Shown here one piece after another: positions 22,249 through 64,000 of a stretch of 64,000 bases of DNA. The stretch's first letter is position 1; each line of letters starts with the position of its first letter. The notes below the pieces were generated by a model that was given only the letters and a program-made list of their open reading frames with translations, was not told the DNA's origin and searched no databases. Position numbers and translations under genes: made by a program. Source of the stretch: an uncultured archaeon (GTDB lineage Archaea > Aenigmatarchaeota > Aenigmatarchaeia > GW2011-AR5); NCBI GenBank assembly GCA_964373695.1, contig CAYJVT010000001.1:22328-86327 (forward strand), in the 5' to 3' direction.

Positions 22249-22340
22249 GAGTTTAATGTTGCAATGAGCTTTTTATACTGTGAAGCCGTCTTTGCAATAT
22301 ACTTTTAAATACTATTAAAATTAATAAAAATTCAGGTACC

Positions 22341-23804
22341 ATGTCGGAAATTCTTCTCATCCAGCCAAATATAGGCATACACGATTTCCTAGCCACCAGA
22401 TTCCCCGACCCTCTGCTCGCAATAGCCTCGGTGCCGCATATGAGGGGTTACAAGGTCAAGATACTTGACCAGAGGATAGAAAAAAACTTCAAGCATCTTC
22501 TGGAGCAGGAAATCGGAAAAAAGCCGCTGTGCATCGCCCTGCCTGTTATGACTGGCGGCCAGATACTCCGCGCCCTTGAGATATCGAAATTCATCAGAAG
22601 CATCGACAAAGACATAAAAATAGTCTGGGGCGGGCCGCATCCGACATTATTCCCTGTCCAGGTCTTGGAAAATGAAAATGTGGACATAATCGTGTCGGGC
22701 GAGGGCGAAATAACGTTTTTCGAGCTTGTCGAGGCTCTTTCAAAAGGCGCTCCTCTTTCAGGCATAAAAGGGATATCGTATAAGGAGGACAGCAGCATAA
22801 AAACGAATCCGGAAAGGGAGCTTATCAAAAATCTTGATGAGCTGCCGCCTATTCCATACGACCTGATAGACGCAAGCAAATATAATCCGACATACATATC
22901 AGGAAGGAAAGCCTTCACGCTCCTGACATCGAGGGGATGTCCATATCGATGCACGTTCTGCTTCGCTACTGCATACTACAACTTCACATGGCGCGGCTAT
23001 TCCGTGGACAGGACGATGGAAATGATACATGAAGCTGTCAACAAATTCGGCGCGCAGACAATACTGTTCCAGGAAGACAACTTCGCGACCAGCATACCGA
23101 GATGCAACGAGATATTTGACAGGATTATAGCGGACGGCCTCGACATTACGTTCAGCCTGGTGGGTATACGCGCCACCGATGTCGCAAGGATGGACCTGGA
23201 CAAGATGTACAAGGCCGGGTGCAGGAACTGCGACATGGGCGTCGAATCAGGGGACCCTGAAGTGATGAAAACCATGATAAAGGCCCTGACGCCGGAACTC
23301 GTCCTGGACGTGAACAGGAAGATAAGGGATTACGGCATAAAGGTGAAATATTCCTTCATAGCCGGCCTCCCGATGGAGAAGGACCCGAAGATATCGATAA
23401 ACTTCGCATTCAAGCTCATAAAGGAGAACAAGAACGCGTATACGCCGTTCTTCCCCTACACGCCTTTTCCGGGCACTGAAATGTACCATGCCGCGATAGA
23501 AAAAGGCTTTGTGCCGCCAACAACGCTCGAAGGCTGGGGCAATTTTGACCTGGAGCACTGGAGGGACCACTATCCCAGCTGGTACACAGAAGAGGAGAAG
23601 CGATGGATAGAGGGCATAGAAAGGATGTCGGTCCTAGGGAACCGCAACTCGAAATACAAGATATCAAACAAGACTTTCAGGTTTTTCTTCGACCTGTACC
23701 ACCCGATTGCCAAGTTCAGGTTCATGAGGAACTACTACGGGATGCCGCTTGACATAAAGATGCAGAACAAGGTCATGAATATGGTAGTCAAGACGCTTGA
23801 TTAA
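22341..23804 (+). CDS. B12-binding domain radical SAM enzyme (class B rSAM, probable C-methyltransferase or related)
   Basis: 487 aa with an N-terminal cobalamin-binding Rossmann domain and a radical SAM motif SRGCPYRCTFC (CxxxCxxC), then ...GVESGDPEV.... Confidence 0.85.
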   Translation: MSEILLIQPNIGIHDFLATRFPDPLLAIASVPHMRGYKVKILDQRIEKNFKHLLEQEIGKKPLCIALPVMTGGQILRALEISKFIRSIDKDIKIVWGGPHPTLFPVQVLENENVDIIVSGEGEITFFELVEALSKGAPLSGIKGISYKEDSSIKTNPERELIKNLDELPPIPYDLIDASKYNPTYISGRKAFTLLTSRGCPYRCTFCFATAYYNFTWRGYSVDRTMEMIHEAVNKFGAQTILFQEDNFATSIPRCNEIFDRIIADGLDITFSLVGIRATDVARMDLDKMYKAGCRNCDMGVESGDPEVMKTMIKALTPELVLDVNRKIRDYGIKVKYSFIAGLPMEKDPKISINFAFKLIKENKNAYTPFFPYTPFPGTEMYHAAIEKGFVPPTTLEGWGNFDLEHWRDHYPSWYTEEEKRWIEGIERMSVLGNRNSKYKISNKTFRFFFDLYHPIAKFRFMRNYYGMPLDIKMQNKVMNMVVKTLD

Positions 23805-25636
23805 TCAATAACAACGAGCTGCTCGTTCACGGATTTTTTTGTCTCTTCAAGATTCGGATAAAGGCTGAACGCCTCGAACTTGTCTCTCCAGTATTCCGAC
23901 TCGCTTAGATATTTCTCTACAAGCCGTATTCTTTCAGCCGCCCCGCCGACGTTGCCGGAATTAAACTCGCATGCGGCAAGCGTCATGTTTGCAAGCGCGT
24001 GGCCTGAAGTGACCACATCGCATATGTATCTCATCTGCCTGACGATCTTAGACAGCCTATCACGATCTTTTATGTTCATGACCCTCTCGTAATTTATTTT
24101 ATAATTCATGTAGAACCATATATCCATCAGCTGCTCCGAAGTCGGCTCCGCATCCAGGTTGCCGCTTTCGAATGGGTTGGCGAATTTTTTCACTTCCTTT
24201 TTGTGCTCGACGGTGTTCTGCTTCCCGTGGGGGCCTATCATGAACCGCGTTTCATTCGTCTGGAGCTTGTCCTCTATCAGGCCCTCTTTCACCATCGCCT
24301 TGTATATCGGGGTAGAGGGCAGAGGCTGCAGTATGTTCAGTGCATACCAGTCCAAGTCCAGCTCAAGTGCAAGGTTCATGGTATCGAGCATCATTCTCAG
24401 CGTTTCATGGGGAAAGCCCAGCATGAGGAAGCCGCGGGAGAATATCTTGGGATATTTCCTTAGAAGGGCCGCCGCATTCCTGAAATTGTCCACTGTCCCG
24501 GGCTTTTTTATGTCCAGAAGTATTTTCGGGTTTCCGGATTCGATGCCGAAGAAAAGCCCTATGCATCCCGATTCGGCCGTAGCCTCTATTATAGCAGGCT
24601 TGCACGCAGCAGCTATGACGCCGTTGGAGGCGTCCCATGTTATGCCGAGGTTGCGCCTTTTTATCTCCTGGAAAAGCTCTATTGTCCTCTTCTCGTTGAA
24701 GAAAAGGTCGTCGTCAAGCCACATTATATGCTTCACGCCGTATTTCCTGGCAAGGAGTTCTATCTCGTCCGCAACGCTTTCAATGCTTCTCTGCCTGACA
24801 CCCATGCCATTGAAGCTGCGGACGCTGCAGAACGTGCACATCGCCCGGCATCCCTTGTTGGAAAGCACGGTCGCGACCCTGGTTCCTGGCTCAAGCAGCG
24901 CAGTGAAGGAGCCGATGGTGCCCACGGAAGAATAATTCGATATATCGACAAGATCGTACGCCGGTATCCTGTTCAAATCATCCGTCTCCGGTGCCTTCCT
25001 TTCCTCCAGCGAATAATATTTGCCGCCTGCAATCACTGACACCTGATAAATCTCATCCCCATGACCGTTCGCGGCCTCAAGAAGCTTCTGGAAAGCCACC
25101 TCGCTCTCGTAGGAGCATGCTATGAGCCTTTCGTAGTCTATTGAGCGCAGAACCCTTTCTGTGTCGTTAGACACGTGAACGCCTCCGACAATTATCGGCA
25201 GTTCCTTTCCGGCGACCTCGCTGCATACTCGCACAAAGCTGTCGTGCGTCATCGTGAACATGCATGTTATGCCGACCGCGTCAGGCCTGAATTCGTCAAT
25301 CTTTCTGGCCAGAAGGCCTTTCCATTCGGCATCGTAATCCATCTTGCCCCCTGATTCCACGGCCCTCTTTATCACATGATAATTTAGGTCGACAATCTCG
25401 GGCTCGTGGCCATTCTCTCGCAAAACGTCGGCGAGAAGCAGCGGGCCATAAGGCGGATATGTATAACACCTTTTCTGCAATGCGGCCTCAAAGTTGAATT
25501 CCTCTGATGCGATGTCCGGCGGGTTGACGAGAAGCACCTTCCTAGCTTTTTTTCCGCCGAATATCTCGCGTATTCTCGCCAATATTGCCGCCTTCGCCTC
25601 CTGTCCCGGCTCGTGCTCTTTCAGAAGCTGCTCCAT
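23801..25636 (-). CDS. B12-binding domain radical SAM enzyme
   Basis: 611 aa with ...LLVNPPD... B12-like N-domain, NKGCRAMCTFC (CxxxCxxC) and ...FGIESGNPKIL.... Its stop codon overlaps the convergent rSAM gene's stop within the palindrome GATTAATC. Confidence 0.85.
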   Translation of the reverse strand: MEQLLKEHEPGQEAKAAILARIREIFGGKKARKVLLVNPPDIASEEFNFEAALQKRCYTYPPYGPLLLADVLRENGHEPEIVDLNYHVIKRAVESGGKMDYDAEWKGLLARKIDEFRPDAVGITCMFTMTHDSFVRVCSEVAGKELPIIVGGVHVSNDTERVLRSIDYERLIACSYESEVAFQKLLEAANGHGDEIYQVSVIAGGKYYSLEERKAPETDDLNRIPAYDLVDISNYSSVGTIGSFTALLEPGTRVATVLSNKGCRAMCTFCSVRSFNGMGVRQRSIESVADEIELLARKYGVKHIMWLDDDLFFNEKRTIELFQEIKRRNLGITWDASNGVIAAACKPAIIEATAESGCIGLFFGIESGNPKILLDIKKPGTVDNFRNAAALLRKYPKIFSRGFLMLGFPHETLRMMLDTMNLALELDLDWYALNILQPLPSTPIYKAMVKEGLIEDKLQTNETRFMIGPHGKQNTVEHKKEVKKFANPFESGNLDAEPTSEQLMDIWFYMNYKINYERVMNIKDRDRLSKIVRQMRYICDVVTSGHALANMTLAACEFNSGNVGGAAERIRLVEKYLSESEYWRDKFEAFSLYPNLEETKKSVNEQLVVID

Positions 25637-25735
25637 ACAAGAACTAGCATTTCACAGTTTTTAAAACTTGTAAAAGCAGTTCACGCCCTGCAGGTGGCTA
25701 TGTTGCCTGCAAGACCGAAAGCGATGGAATTATCA

Positions 25736-56600: not shown

Positions 56601-56695
56601 TATAGTGAAACAAGAAAATAATACCGACATTATAGCTTGTTTCACATATAGTGCCCAATGATATAATATCCTTTTTATTTCATTGGAGCACTATA
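56601..56695. repeat. Structured ~95-bp repeat element, copy 2 (hairpin GTGAAACAAG...CTTGTTTCAC plus palindrome TATAGTGCCCAATGA...TCATTGGAGCACTATA), inverted relative to copy 1
   Basis: The stems are conserved with copy 1 (TATAGTGCTCCAA, GGCACTATATGTGAAMCAA, TTGKTTCACTATA) while the loops differ. It ends 10 nt before the ATG at 56706 and contains ctatataa. Confidence 0.7.
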
Positions 56696-56705
56696 TAACT
56701 ATCAT

Positions 56706-58518
56706 ATGCTTAAATCTCGCGAAGTGATTCTGTCGGCATTGCTGTGCGCCGTGATATTTTCATTGCCTAATTTTCTTATGCCTGTCTTGAGGGGTGACGG
56801 CGCATATACCCCGCTTCTCGTGAAGGACGTCAATACATATGCAGTAGACCAGACCATGCTCTATGCTCCGGGCATAAGGGACGTGATGGACGGGCACCTC
56901 ATCGCCAATGATCCGGCCATCTTTGAAAACAAGGACAGGCTGTCGTTTCTGGCGCCGCTCTTCCCGACTCTGTTTCTTGGGATTATGTCGGTGCTTGCTG
57001 GTTCCGTTCAGGCGACATTTATGCTGGGGAGCTTCGTATTTCCGTTCATAGCATTTATTCTGGTGTATTTCCTCTTCTACGAGGCCACGAAAAGCAGGAA
57101 CGCCTCTTTGCTGTCGTCTTTCTGCGTTTCTCTGGGATTCAATTTCATAGCCAATATGCCGGTGACGGCGGAAACCATACGGTTTTACTTGGGGAGGCTT
57201 TTTCTGAATCCTATAGAGCCCATAAACTATCTTGGGAGGCTGCCGCACATACAGTTTACCTTCATCTTGCTGCTCCTTTCGCTGATATTCATCTACCTTA
57301 CGCTTGAAAGGAAGAAGGTATCGTATGCAGCAGCAGGAGGCATAATGCTTGGGGTGCTTTTCTATTCGTATTTCTATTACTGGACTGCGATATTGGCCGC
57401 GGTAGGGATTCTGTTCCTTGTTTCCATGGCGAAAAGGGACTTCAGAACAGCCGGAAACATGGTGGTGATATCCGTTGTGGGCGCTGTTCTGGCAGCGCCG
57501 TACATAGCGAATCTTTTTGTCATGGCATCATCAGAGAGTTATGCAGACATAGGGAGCAGGCTGGGGCTTGAGTCCGGATTTGAAGTGCTCCTGCCCGTGA
57601 AATACCTGGCCGTTTACCTGATATTCGCCGGGCTGACCAGAAAAAGGAATAATTTTTTCTGGCTTGTGTCGTCGGCTTTCATGGCCGGGATCGCCCTTAT
57701 CATCATGCCTGTGCTGACGGGCTTCGGCATACAGAGCAGGCACTACGACACGACTCTTCTGGCGCCGCTTTCTGCCATGGCTCTGGTTTACGCATTCAGG
57801 GAGCTCTCCATAGGCGACCATAAAAGGCCTGTTCTGTCGCAGATGTCCGATTTTATAAGGACCAATTCCAGGAATATAACGCTTGTGGTTGCGCTGTTTC
57901 TTGTCGTTGTCAGCTTCTACTCGCAAGCCGCTTACGCATTCAATGCTTACAGGGCTTTCGGGCTCAAAGGCGAATATAAAGAGGTTTACGACTGGCTTAA
58001 CGAAAACACCGAAAAAGACAGCGTCGTTTTTACTATGAGCGTCGAGCAGAACTCCCTTATACCTGTCTATACGCACAACAATGTTTTTATTCCAAATGGA
58101 TTCTTCTCTCCATATTCAGACGAGGAGATACTCGAGAGGCTTTTCATTGTCTACAGGCTCTTCGGCGTGACACCGGAATACCTGGAGGGCCTTATGGAAA
58201 ACGGGGATTCGGCAAGAAGGTACAACGGGATGCGGGAGAGGCTTGAGGAGTCCGACCAGGCCCTGTTTGAAAGCGCATACTGGAACCTTTACCCGTTCCA
58301 CGAAAAGTTCATCAATGAAAGGATAATTCAGTCGGAACTCCTGGGGGAGATGGACAAAGCCGGGATATACAAGGCCATGCTCGACTACTACAGAAACTTC
58401 ACGCCGGACATGGAGAAATACAGGATTGATTATATGATGGCCGGCGAATATGAAAGAAGCGTCTCCGATTTTGAGCCGCCGTCGGGGTTCAGGCTTCTGT
58501 GGTCGAATGAAAAGATTT

Positions 58519-58538
<20 letters not shown>
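56706..58538 (+). CDS. Large polytopic membrane protein, GT-C-like, paralog B
   Basis: 610 aa: ...LPNFLMPVLRGDGAYTPLLVKDVNTYAVDQT... and ...DWLNENTEKDSVVFTMSVEQNSLIPVYTHNNVFIP... parallel 20515..22248 throughout. Confidence 0.6.
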
Positions 58539-61493
<2,955 letters not shown>

Positions 61494-61497
<4 letters not shown>

Positions 61498-62426
61498 CCA
61501 GACGCCTCTTTCATCCATTCAGCCGCGCTCTCCACTATAGACCTTATATCATGCCGCGGCTTCCATCCGAGAACTTTTCTGGCCCTCGTTTCATCTGCAA
61601 ATACTTCGGGAGGGTCGCCCGGCATCCTCGGCAATATCCTGAGACGTATGTCCTTTCCTGTGACCTCCTCGACAACCCTGACTATCTCCATGTTGGAAAC
61701 GCCGGAGCCGTATCCTATGTTGTATGTCCCTGTCTTGTCCAGCGAAAGTATGTGCGCCTGCGCTATGTCCTCGACATGCACGTAGTCCCGTATGCACGTG
61801 CCGTCCCTTGTCGGGTAGTCGTTGCCGTATATGTCAAGCGCATGCCCGCCGAGAGCGGCGCCGAGCGCGTTGGATACGAGCCTTCCGGACATTTCGCCTG
61901 TGCCGCGGCTGGCTCCCGCGACGTTGAAATACCTGAGTATTGTGCATTCGAATCCGCGCTGTTTTTCGTACCAGAGAAGTGTCTTTTCCGCCATGGCTTT
62001 CGTTTCGGCGTATACGCTTTCCGGACTTATTGGCGTTTCCTCCGTCACTGGCAGTCTTTTCGGGATGCCATAAACGGCGCACGACGACGAGAATATGATT
62101 TTTTTTATTCCGAAGTCATCCATCGAGCCGAGCAGGTTTACGGTCCCTGAAACATTGTTCACGAAGTAAGCTCCTGGCCGTTTCATTGAATCCCCGACAT
62201 GCGCCAGCGCCGCCAGATGCATCACAGCATCTATGTCGCCTTTTCCCATAACATCGTCTATCTGGGATTTGTTCGTGATATCGCCTTTTACTATATTGAC
62301 GCCTTTCGGAGGGGCGCGGCCTGATGAAAAATTGTCGAAGACTATGGTGTCAAAGCCCTTCTCCTGAAGAACCGCATTGGTCACAGAGCCTATGTACCCT
62401 GCGCCTCCTGTTATAAGCACAGCCAT
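61494..62426 (-). CDS. galE: UDP-glucose 4-epimerase
   Basis: From the internal Met (ATG at 62424-62426): MAVLITGGAGYIGSVTNAVL...YAETKAM... . The 103-aa Arg/Glu-rich N-terminal extension of the listed ORF is rejected. Confidence 0.8.
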
Positions 62427-62479
62427 TTGTTCCTTATCGAATCGACGTTTTAAAAGGAATCTTAGAACAATGCTTGAAA

Positions 62480-64000
62480 TTACTTTCCGGCGAGAAGGCT
62501 CTTTATGACCATCTTCGCGGCGCGCGGATAGTCCCTCTTCTTGGTGAACTTCAGGTTTGCCAGATAGAAAGCTTTTACCCTCTCGTCCGCCGGGTATTCG
62601 GGTGTGTCGAATACGGGCTTCGGCCTGGCGCCTATGTGGAACCCTTCCTTCCAGTCCCTCAGCATCCTCACGTTCGGGTCGGCCCTCACCTGGTTCCATA
62701 CCTCTGTCCCTGGGTAGGGCACAAGTATTCCCCACGAAGCCGATTCAAGCCCGACCTTTTTCACGAATTCCATCGAGCGTTTGTCAGTCTCGTAGGTGCT
62801 TCCGACCAGACCAAGTATGAAGAATCCGTGGACCTTGAGGCCGGCTTTCTTTGCAATTGCTATGCCATGCTCCACGTCCTCGAGCTTCTCGCCCTTGTTT
62901 ATCTTCCTGAATACCTCGGGGTCGCCGCTTTCCACCCCTATCGACACCGAGTAGCATCCGGCCTTCACCATGAGCTCGCACAGCTCGTCATCAAGCCTGT
63001 CCGCCCGTATGCCGTTGGGGCATGTCCATTTCATGTCCAGCCCTTCGTCGATGAAGAACCTGCATATGTCCTTTGCCCTGTCCATCAGGAGCGTGAAGTT
63101 GTCGTCAAGCACCTTGAATTCCGTGCATCCGTATTTCTCCTGGGCATATCTCAGCTCATTCATTATGTTCTCGCCAGAGCGCGTCCTGAACTTCCTGCCT
63201 ATTACTGTCGGGACATTACAGTTGTTCACAAGGAAGCCGTTTGCCGTGTAGGTGTGGTCTTCTTCTACTTCTATGTTATATACAATGCCGGTGAAATCCT
63301 CGGTATCAGCGCTTTCTACCGGGAAGTATACGGCATTTTCATCTCTTATCTCAATTTCTGTTCTTCCTGCATCCTCTGCAATTTCTATTCCAAAAATGCT
63401 CTCAGATAGTCTTTTCACATCCCTTTTTGACTTGAAACTAAGATGATAATTGTAGCCGCAGGAGTCTATTTTCCTGCCGTTTATTTCGCTGCTACCAGCG
63501 TTGTTTTTCTGGAGGCTGGGCGAAAACCCTATTTTTTGGGCGATTATGAAAAACTGGTAGGCGAGGGAATGCGATACAGTTGAAGCCTTTATCATCTTTT
63601 TGCCTTCATATCTGACTATTCCGCCATCTCCGAGTATCCAGCCCTTTAGAAGCCCTTCTAAAGTCACCGCGTCAGATTTCATTATGATTTCAGGTATTGA
63701 TTTTTTGCCTGAACCTGAGCCAAAGAGCTTTTCGAAAAGCATTGAAATCGGGGCATTTGAAACATAAACTCTTGTTACACTATTTTGATTCACAATTAGT
63801 GGATCTAAATCAAAAATATTCTTTATCAGGTATTTTACATCTTCTATGTATGCAATTTCATCATTTCTGAATGTCCATGATATTGTATAGCTATTTGGCC
63901 TTCTTTTGCTCTTTGTTACCGAACCCTCTGCCAGATAATATCCAAAAAGCCTGGACAAATCTTTTGTTATAGGTATTTTTGAAGGGATTCCTTTAGAGAG
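62480..64000 (-). CDS. B12-binding/radical SAM enzyme (paralog of 22341..23804) interrupted by an intein; partial, continues beyond window end
   Basis: C-terminal extein (62480-63220): CNVPTVIGRKFRTRS...GVESGDPEVFRKI... is a radical SAM barrel. Upstream, in frame and open to position 64000, lies the intein sequence. Confidence 0.75.
   Translation of the reverse strand, partial: LSKGIPSKIPITKDLSRLFGYYLAEGSVTKSKRRPNSYTISWTFRNDEIAYIEDVKYLIKNIFDLDPLIVNQNSVTRVYVSNAPISMLFEKLFGSGSGKKSIPEIIMKSDAVTLEGLLKGWILGDGGIVRYEGKKMIKASTVSHSLAYQFFIIAQKIGFSPSLQKNNAGSSEINGRKIDSCGYNYHLSFKSKRDVKRLSESIFGIEIAEDAGRTEIEIRDENAVYFPVESADTEDFTGIVYNIEVEEDHTYTANGFLVNNCNVPTVIGRKFRTRSGENIMNELRYAQEKYGCTEFKVLDDNFTLLMDRAKDICRFFIDEGLDMKWTCPNGIRADRLDDELCELMVKAGCYSVSIGVESGDPEVFRKINKGEKLEDVEHGIAIAKKAGLKVHGFFILGLVGSTYETDKRSMEFVKKVGLESASWGILVPYPGTEVWNQVRADPNVRMLRDWKEGFHIGARPKPVFDTPEYPADERVKAFYLANLKFTKKRDYPRAAKMVIKSLLAGK
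63221..64000 (-). mobile_element. Intein with LAGLIDADG homing-endonuclease domain (C-terminal splice junction ...ANGFLVNN|C), partial
   Basis: DOD motifs LFGYYLAEGSV and LLKGWILGDGGI. The C-terminal Blocks F/G read IVYNIEVEEDHTYTANGFLVNN followed by the +1 Cys. That Cys aligns with the third Cys of the rSAM CxxxCxxC motif of the paralogs. Confidence 0.75.

Follow-up and report, generated by a model that had tools for sequence, protein, structure and literature searches.

Organization of the intein-containing gene

The 64,000-nucleotide (nt) stretch of DNA analyzed here (the window) ends at position 64000 within a minus-strand gene for a radical S-adenosylmethionine (SAM) enzyme, the coding sequence of which is interrupted by a predicted intein. 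From 64000 down to the TAA at 62480–62482, the frame runs without a stop for 506 codons and comprises, from its 3' end: (i) the C-extein (62480–63220, 246 aa plus TAA), representing the radical SAM core 3' of the cluster loop, as supported by its translation, PF04055 and 96 % identity to an intein-free homologue (P0001), (ii) the TGT codon of the +1 Cys (63218–63220), predicted to serve as C-extein nucleophile and, once spliced, as third Cys of the CxxxCxxC motif, at which the empty allele is uninterrupted, and (iii) the C-terminal 260 residues of the intein (63221–64000), containing the homing-endonuclease domain and the C-terminal splicing blocks (translation, PF14890, TIGR01445 and a match to the intein PI-PkoII). 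The latter portion includes LAGLIDADG motif 1 LSRLFGYYLAEGSV (63917–63958, minus strand, including YYLAEGSV), which retains its acidic Glu and aligns with LLGYYVSEG of PI-PkoII, LAGLIDADG motif 2 LEGLLKGWILGDGGI (LLKGWILGDGGI; 63617–63661, minus strand), which retains its acidic Asp, is covered by PF14528 and aligns with FLEGYFIGDG of PI-PkoII, and blocks F/G GIVYNIEVEEDHTYTANGFLVNN (IVYNIEVEEDHTYTANGFLVNN; 63221–63289, minus strand) with the terminal Asn (TIGR01443). Following the +1 Cys, the C-extein continues with NVPTVIGRKFRTRS (CNVPTVIGRKF...) and later reads GVESGDPEV.

The gene is truncated at the window edge and its remainder was read on the metagenome contig L001. Use of the neighbouring UDP-glucose dehydrogenase as exact-sequence query had yielded four metagenome contigs; L001 is 99.986 % identical to window positions 56667–64000 and runs 7.5 kb further. 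It contains the complete gene (L001:6391–9039, 2649 nt), encoding 882 aa in a single frame from ATG, in the order B12-binding domain, N-extein, intein and C-extein with the radical SAM core. The N-extein ends with ...PLVTSRGCPYVCSY (...TSRGCPYVCSY) and the intein starts with CFPSGTLVHTEKG (CFPSGTLV...). The intein corresponds to residues 194–636 of the 882-aa protein (443 aa; L001:6970–8298, 1329 nt), its N-terminal 183 residues lying beyond the window edge. Its interior shows the order Cys1, TLNH, a helix-turn-helix (HTH)-like linker, two LAGLIDADG motifs and ...FLVNN, followed by the +1 Cys. The predicted spliced product has 439 aa (~49 kDa, versus ~50 kDa for the free intein) and reads CPYVCSYC at the cluster loop, with ...CPYVCSYCNVPTVIGR as ligated junction peptide. 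Assemblies of three sequencing runs contain this 2649-nt gene with 100 % identity, and an assembly chimera is thereby excluded.

The original prediction, made from the window only, had described an open minus-strand frame from 62480 to the window edge with several intein motifs; translation and profile scores bear out the frame and every one of the motif strings quoted. It had further assigned the +1 Cys as third cluster ligand, in agreement with the junction on L001 and with CPYVCSYC formed upon splicing. The N-terminal splicing domain, on the absence of which the prediction was to be abandoned, is present on L001 (Cys1, TLNH) in the same frame and is preceded by CxxxCxx.

Splicing and endonuclease features

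All core splicing residues of an intein are present, i.e., Cys1, TxxH, the terminal Asn and Cys+1. Cys1 directly follows the N-extein on L001 (...GCPYVCSY/CFPSGTLV; the slash marks the junction here and below), block B is represented by TLNH (intein residues 74–77), aligning with TPNH in orthologs that carry a mini-intein, and the C-terminal junction (...NGFLVNN/C, 63218–63241) consists of the terminal Asn and Cys+1. Matches were obtained to TIGR01445 (intein_Nterm; 30.5 bits, cutoff 24.5; residues 194–263), PF14890 (Intein_splicing; 47.5 bits, cutoff 35.8) and TIGR01443 (intein_Cterm; 26.8 bits, cutoff 15.6), and for the endonuclease to PF14528 (LAGLIDADG_3; 38.3 bits, cutoff 22.5). Since these scores exceed the curated cutoffs, the motif strings are not chance matches. 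Both LAGLIDADG motifs retain the acidic residue and the Gly (YYLAEG and ILGDG), and the double-motif LAGLIDADG homing endonuclease thus appears intact. Just 3' of the motif 1 span, the intein carries the RRPNS signature typical of its clade (see below). The predicted overall architecture combines a double-motif LAGLIDADG endonuclease and an HTH-like linker with a split Hint splicing domain.

The HTH-like segment (KEGFSTRQIASKTGLSKSFVHTAM; L001:7348–7449, intein residues ~127–160) separates the N-terminal splicing domain from the endonuclease. The same residues are matched by about 12 different HTH families of Pfam, all of them below threshold (best HTH_23, E=1e-3, 19 bits versus cutoff 24.6). 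A similar G.S.R.IA stretch was found in about one third of the related inteins at radical SAM sites and also in an intein of a glycosyltransferase (P0121). The segment may represent an extra DNA-binding module.

Empty, mini- and full-length alleles among orthologs

More than 1200 homologues were retrieved with the spliced extein as query. The closest ones are devoid of an intein: P0001 (96 % protein identity) reads TSRGCPYSCSYCNVPTVIGRKFRTRS (CPYSCSYC/NVPTVIGRKF), and P0002–P0005 (85–88 % identity), several of which are named Candidatus Aenigmarchaeota, are likewise intein-free. The empty allele encoding P0001 (L005) is 91 % identical in DNA to the window gene on either side of the insertion and is missing precisely the 1329 nt of the intein, in line with the earlier expectation that orthologs without the insertion exist; its uninterrupted site ...GGATGTCCGTATTCTTGCTCGTAC/TGCAATGTCCCGACAGTGATAGG... 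is a candidate homing target. Comparison with the intein-free homologues thus reveals a precise in-frame insertion at a conserved catalytic motif, as had been proposed. Relative to the empty allele, 90 codons of the spliced gene differ synonymously and 16 non-synonymously. This mostly synonymous change is consistent with a functional host gene, and most of the divergence may predate the insertion.

At the same site, at least 11 orthologs (P0013, P0026, P0028, P0032, P0033, P0035, P0036, P0039, P0040, P0047 and P0049; ~70–79 % identity) contain a mini-intein of ~150 aa with the junctions ...CPYTCTY/CFEGEM...TPNHKIK...VYNLEVEDDHTYTVNGIAVSN/CNVPTVIGR. These mini-inteins lack the ~290-aa endonuclease region, and their splicing domain is homologous to that of the window intein (P0013: 32 % identity in the N-terminal portion, 57 % in blocks F/G). 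Placed on a neighbour-joining tree (70 exteins), alleles with a mini-intein (11) or a full-length intein (two) are scattered among 57 empty ones, and the clade containing the window gene comprises five further sampled members, all of them empty. A single gene family hence offers a textbook-like natural illustration of the intein life cycle, comprising empty alleles alongside full-length inteins and inteins devoid of the endonuclease.

The base composition of the intein (38.4 % GC; 37 % at third codon positions, GC3) differs from that of the N-extein (50.9 %; GC3 67 %), the C-extein (54.5 %; GC3 73 %) and the window as a whole (49.6 %). Because an exact empty allele, a patchy distribution and a foreign base composition coincide, the intein is regarded as a recent foreign acquisition, suggesting a mobile element derived from a donor of lower GC content.

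Related inteins at radical SAM cluster loops

When only the intein was used as query, a word-indexed protein search yielded 14 distant matches (best 29 % identity) in hosts other than radical SAM enzymes, suggestive of an orphan intein. This impression was overturned by a filter-free HMMER search of 1.84 billion cluster representatives, in which the query consisted of the intein part within the window and 30 extein residues, yielding 5752 hits at E<=1e-3. The best match (P0135, 872 aa) belongs to the same enzyme family and carries a 445-aa intein at the same site, with 53 % identity to the window intein over the endonuclease and C-terminal part. Among the best 150 matches, 36 display the pattern Cx3-4Cxx/C-intein-N/C, or about 33 if P0158, P0180 and P0200 with misplaced C-terminal junctions are discounted; inteins of the Cx3-4Cxx/C type account for 10 of the 15 top-ranked matches. 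The strict junction pattern was used for this count, since a relaxed one (Ser/Ala/Thr at position 1) added likely false positives.

Hosts of inteins at this site comprise several families of B12-type radical SAM enzymes, AmmeMemoRadiSam proteins (P0146, 302 bits and P0186, 257 bits; cutoff 220), a member of the PA0069/Rv2578c family (P0223) and others. In case of P0144, the best radical SAM model is that of a tungsten-cofactor oxidoreductase maturase, with a score far below cutoff. P0136 and P0141 (among P0135–P0284) are further examples of the lineage. Members are recognised by Asn in position 4 of block F and by RP[NS]S following LAGLIDADG motif 1, often together with the HTH-like linker. 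RP[NS]S occurs in 25 of the 36 inteins at radical SAM sites versus 7 of the 114 other matches (Fisher p=5e-14), and at least two of these seven exceptions are radical SAM-site inteins missed by the junction pattern. These counts argue for assigning the window intein to a coherent lineage tied to the radical SAM cluster loop, and the variety of hosts suggests that this lineage has spread across radical SAM families via the shared motif. For annotation, the finding implies that radical SAM genes of ~830–1000 aa (the size range of the examined B12-type hosts with an intein) may contain inteins rather than represent novel fusions.

Two side observations emerged from the match list. Several very long proteins (3000–4900 aa), among them P0137 (4920 aa), P0153 and P0155, match the intein query in five to seven separate regions and may represent multi-intein proteins. 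Furthermore, a DNA cytosine methyltransferase (P0131) carries an intein at its catalytic ...GGSPC/.../QDFS (PCQ) motif; block F of this intein (VYNIEVEEDHTYTAN) is identical to that of the window intein, the remainder being only ~27 % identical.

Comparison with known inteins

MoaA (GTP 3',8-cyclase) is an oxygen-sensitive enzyme of the radical SAM superfamily. For the MoaA intein of Pyrococcus abyssi, splicing is reported to be blocked in an oxidising environment by a native disulfide between Cys-3 of the N-extein and Cys1 (Callahan et al. 2011, as cited in PMC3922620 and PMC10663303). The window intein likewise combines a Cys at -3 with Cys1, the geometry expected for an insertion before the third Cys of CxxxCxxC; the report on Cys-3, rather than the MoaA sequence, indicates that the two inteins probably share the insertion site. 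The hosts differ, however (GTP 3',8-cyclase versus B12-domain radical SAM enzyme), and redox control has been reported for MoaA only.

Two 'exception' models of NCBIfam, NF045703 (tetraether lipid synthase, Tes) and NF038136 (Rv2578c family), represent curated intein-containing radical SAM proteins and thereby resemble the window protein. Residues 225–730 of the latter are colinear with positions 213–704 of NF045703, through the intein into the radical SAM core, and the NF045703 alignment of the relative P0146 starts in the CxxxCxx segment. From arithmetic on the model coordinates, the inteins of both models probably reside at or next to the third Cys. The window host itself is neither Tes nor Rv2578c, as its scores fall well short of the cutoffs (75 bits against 1700 in case of Tes). 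The element adds one member, on sequence grounds, to an already curated kind of intein occupying this site in many radical SAM enzymes. The location had originally been called unusual, which was overstated in view of the related inteins that many radical SAM families harbour at this position, the two NCBIfam models and the MoaA precedent, and general knowledge of inteins or radical SAM chemistry is not altered by the finding. In the searchable literature, no paper on inteins at the radical SAM motif was found beyond MoaA and no superfamily-wide site-specific lineage is described; the lineage thus appears little described there.

The mini-inteins of the orthologs and the intein of P0135 share with the window intein the host family, the site, Asn at block F position 4 and the lack of a penultimate His. 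Solved inteins with matches are PI-PkoII, the DNA polymerase intein of Thermococcus kodakarensis (PDB 2cw7; E=2e-16, covering the splicing and endonuclease parts of the window intein, with the endonuclease region aligned over 245 residues), and the KlbA mini-intein of Mja (2jmz; sequence match, E=3e-7). As a group, these two share the canonical Hint splicing domain and double-LAGLIDADG architecture with the window intein, but differ in host and site as well as in position 4 of block F (Asp) and in the absence of RP[NS]S after motif 1.

Proposed splicing route and alternative explanations

Taken together, the element is very probably a genuine class-1 intein, the in-frame insertion of which separates Tyr(-1) from the third Cys of the CxxxCxxC [4Fe-4S] loop of a B12-domain radical SAM enzyme from an Aenigmatarchaeota-like host. 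The junction residues for each splicing step are seen in the sequence, and the chemistry is assumed by analogy with other class-1 inteins. Following folding of the 882-aa precursor, Cys1 would attack the carbonyl of Tyr(-1) (N-S acyl shift), and trans-thioesterification would pass the acyl group on to Cys+1, which later becomes a ligand of the cluster. Cyclization of Asn443 would then release the intein, and an S-N shift would join ...CPYVCSY to CNVPTV..., generating the 439-aa enzyme. Since splicing recreates CPYVCSYC, the +1 nucleophile is at the same time the third cluster cysteine. The target site being a catalytic metal ligand, the enzyme should be unable to bind its cluster natively before splicing, and native-geometry cluster binding as well as SAM cleavage would be possible only thereafter. 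The endonuclease of the freed intein may cut empty alleles at the sequence coding for the cluster loop, whereupon repair would copy the intein in (homing).

Two observations weigh against this proposal. The penultimate residue of the intein is Asn instead of His, as noted originally, and block F position 4 is Asn instead of Asp. Moreover, a cluster of differences to the empty allele at -16 to -4 of the junction (11/60 nt versus a mean of 5.4) was considered as a co-conversion tract and not counted, as it is no stronger than a cluster elsewhere in the gene (13/60 nt). The non-canonical Asn pair would also fit a dead insertion or pseudogene, in which intein splicing was lost and the host gene became inactive, its role being covered by other B12-type radical SAM paralogs; at least three other such genes are present in the same region. 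This scenario is nevertheless considered improbable. The AT-rich frame of 443 intein codons within a gene of 882 codons has acquired neither stop nor frameshift and is identical in three assemblies, and the change in the exteins relative to the empty allele is mostly synonymous. The Asn pair is only a weak argument against activity, as it recurs in the mini-intein orthologs and most same-site relatives: 24 of 35 related same-site inteins have Asn at block F position 4, a penultimate His is found in a minority of them, and the mini-inteins, which have been kept in many diverged but otherwise conserved orthologs, end in SN. Penultimate His and Asp at block F position 4 are common, not universal assisting residues, and fast-splicing DnaE inteins also lack the penultimate His. 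Based on the clade-wide sharing of the non-canonical residues and the DnaE precedent, the window intein is expected to be splicing-competent. That a truncated radical SAM gene adjoins a free-standing endonuclease gene, or that the assembly is chimeric, was conceivable only since the window ends inside the element; no support for either was found, and both are practically ruled out by the single frame from the ATG through the B12-binding domain, both splicing parts, the endonuclease and the radical SAM core, by the identical gene in three assemblies and by junctions that are precise relative to the empty allele.

Compatible with a genuine class-1 intein, yet doubtful, is the further possibility that splicing is conditional, i.e., gated by redox or iron-sulfur status, such that the enzyme matures only under reducing conditions. 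The arrangement Cys(-7), Cys(-3), Cys1 and Cys+1 is read directly from the sequence, and the precursor CPYVCSY-C(Cys1) still reads CxxxCxxC; a disulfide or the ligation of a cluster or metal at Cys1 of this pseudo-motif could stop the first acyl shift. Because the second cluster Cys sits at -3 of Cys1, a Cys-3/Cys1 disulfide is sterically plausible and could, speculatively, delay splicing under oxidising conditions, for which the intein of the oxygen-sensitive MoaA of P. abyssi provides a precedent (PMC3922620, PMC10663303). The persistence of endonuclease-less mini-inteins in many orthologs could also reflect retention for function. On the other hand, occupancy is patchy with empty alleles in the closest relatives, the base composition of the intein is foreign and its endonuclease is seemingly intact, as befits a selfish mobile element without benefit for the host. 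Moreover, insertion of an intein before the third Cys necessarily places a Cys at -3, and the arrangement hence provides no evidence of selection. A comparably low probability is assigned to the broader idea of a single lineage specialised in the radical SAM cluster loop, homing at the CxxxCxxC-coding sequence across the families of the superfamily, with splicing gated by a disulfide or by Fe-S/metal at the pseudo-CxxxCxxC so that the enzymes mature only under reducing, iron-replete conditions. Natural inteins with the Cys-3/Cys1/Cys+1 arrangement represent candidate redox- or Fe-S-responsive splicing switches.

Host enzyme and genomic setting

The host protein combines CxxxCxxC (spliced), a Radical_SAM core and an N-terminal B12-binding domain, and thus belongs to the subgroup of radical SAM enzymes with a B12-binding domain. 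In the window fragment, PF04055 (Radical_SAM) scores 62.6 bits (cutoff 29.5; residues 261–412, profile positions 14–165), with the alignment beginning right at the +1 Cys (profile position 14); on the complete protein the score rises to 72.4 bits. PF02310 (B12-binding; 49.1 bits, cutoff 32.1) is located upstream of the cluster loop. Among solved structures, the ortholog profile matches AprD4 best (6fd2, E=5e-30), and also TokK, CysS, OxsB and TsrM. None of the NCBIfam equivalog models (HpnJ, PhpK, AprD4, Tes and others) reaches its curated cutoff for the window gene, the best being HpnJ (171 bits versus cutoff 577.6; P0001, 177 bits).

Co-directional genes downstream of the host gene (minus strand; assigned by Pfam/NCBIfam and also called on L001) form its context outside the intein and encode a GalE-like epimerase (61494–62426), a UDP-glucose 6-dehydrogenase (60241–61518), a nucleotidyl transferase (about 59450–60250) and an NDP-sugar epimerase/dehydratase (58519–59457). 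The order STT3-like protein, unknown protein, divergent GT4 glycosyltransferase and host radical SAM enzyme is kept in four genomes, in which sugar epimerases, a GT2 glycosyltransferase, PMT_2 and a second B12-type radical SAM enzyme are also encoded nearby. The designation of the host as glycan-modification enzyme, proposed originally, therefore agrees with the conserved gene context and finds no counterpart among the equivalog models; from context only, a role in glycan or glycolipid modification is a reasonable inference.

The nearest species-representative genomes are metagenome-assembled genomes of Aenigmatarchaeota, the best of which encodes an intein-free homologue with 88 % identity, and four carry the mini-intein; more distant homologues of the host enzyme occur in other DPANN archaea and in bacteria. 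Based on the 88 % identity to the nearest representative, the host organism is probably an Aenigmatarchaeota-like (DPANN) archaeon. Scans for tRNA genes and Rfam families across the whole 64-kb window revealed no tRNA gene and no Rfam family at threshold, and thus no taxonomic marker.

Two intein-free B12-type radical SAM paralogs with uninterrupted cluster motifs, which had served for comparison in the original prediction, are encoded at 22284–23804 (plus strand, 506 aa) and 23801–25651 (minus strand, 616 aa). They read CPYRCTFC and CRAMCTFC, respectively, and indeed contain the comparison strings CPYRCTFCFATAYYNFTWRGYS and CRAMCTFCSVRSFNGMGVRQRS. The two genes are convergent, their 3' ends sharing 4 nt. 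Together with a further paralog at L001:220–1710 and the host gene, the region comprises at least four such enzymes. Converging on the sugar-nucleotide operon, a 610-aa open reading frame (56706–58538, plus strand) has no Pfam match at E<=0.01; the corresponding region on L001–L003 bears gene calls of 622–623 aa that reach the contig ends. Adjoining a B12-type radical SAM gene on L001, a partial gene (L001:1–99) encodes MtrA (PF04208) and pterin-binding DUF4346 domains in a seemingly DPANN (Aenigmatarchaeota-like) genome rather than that of a methanogen, and its product could handle corrinoids for the B12-dependent enzymes.

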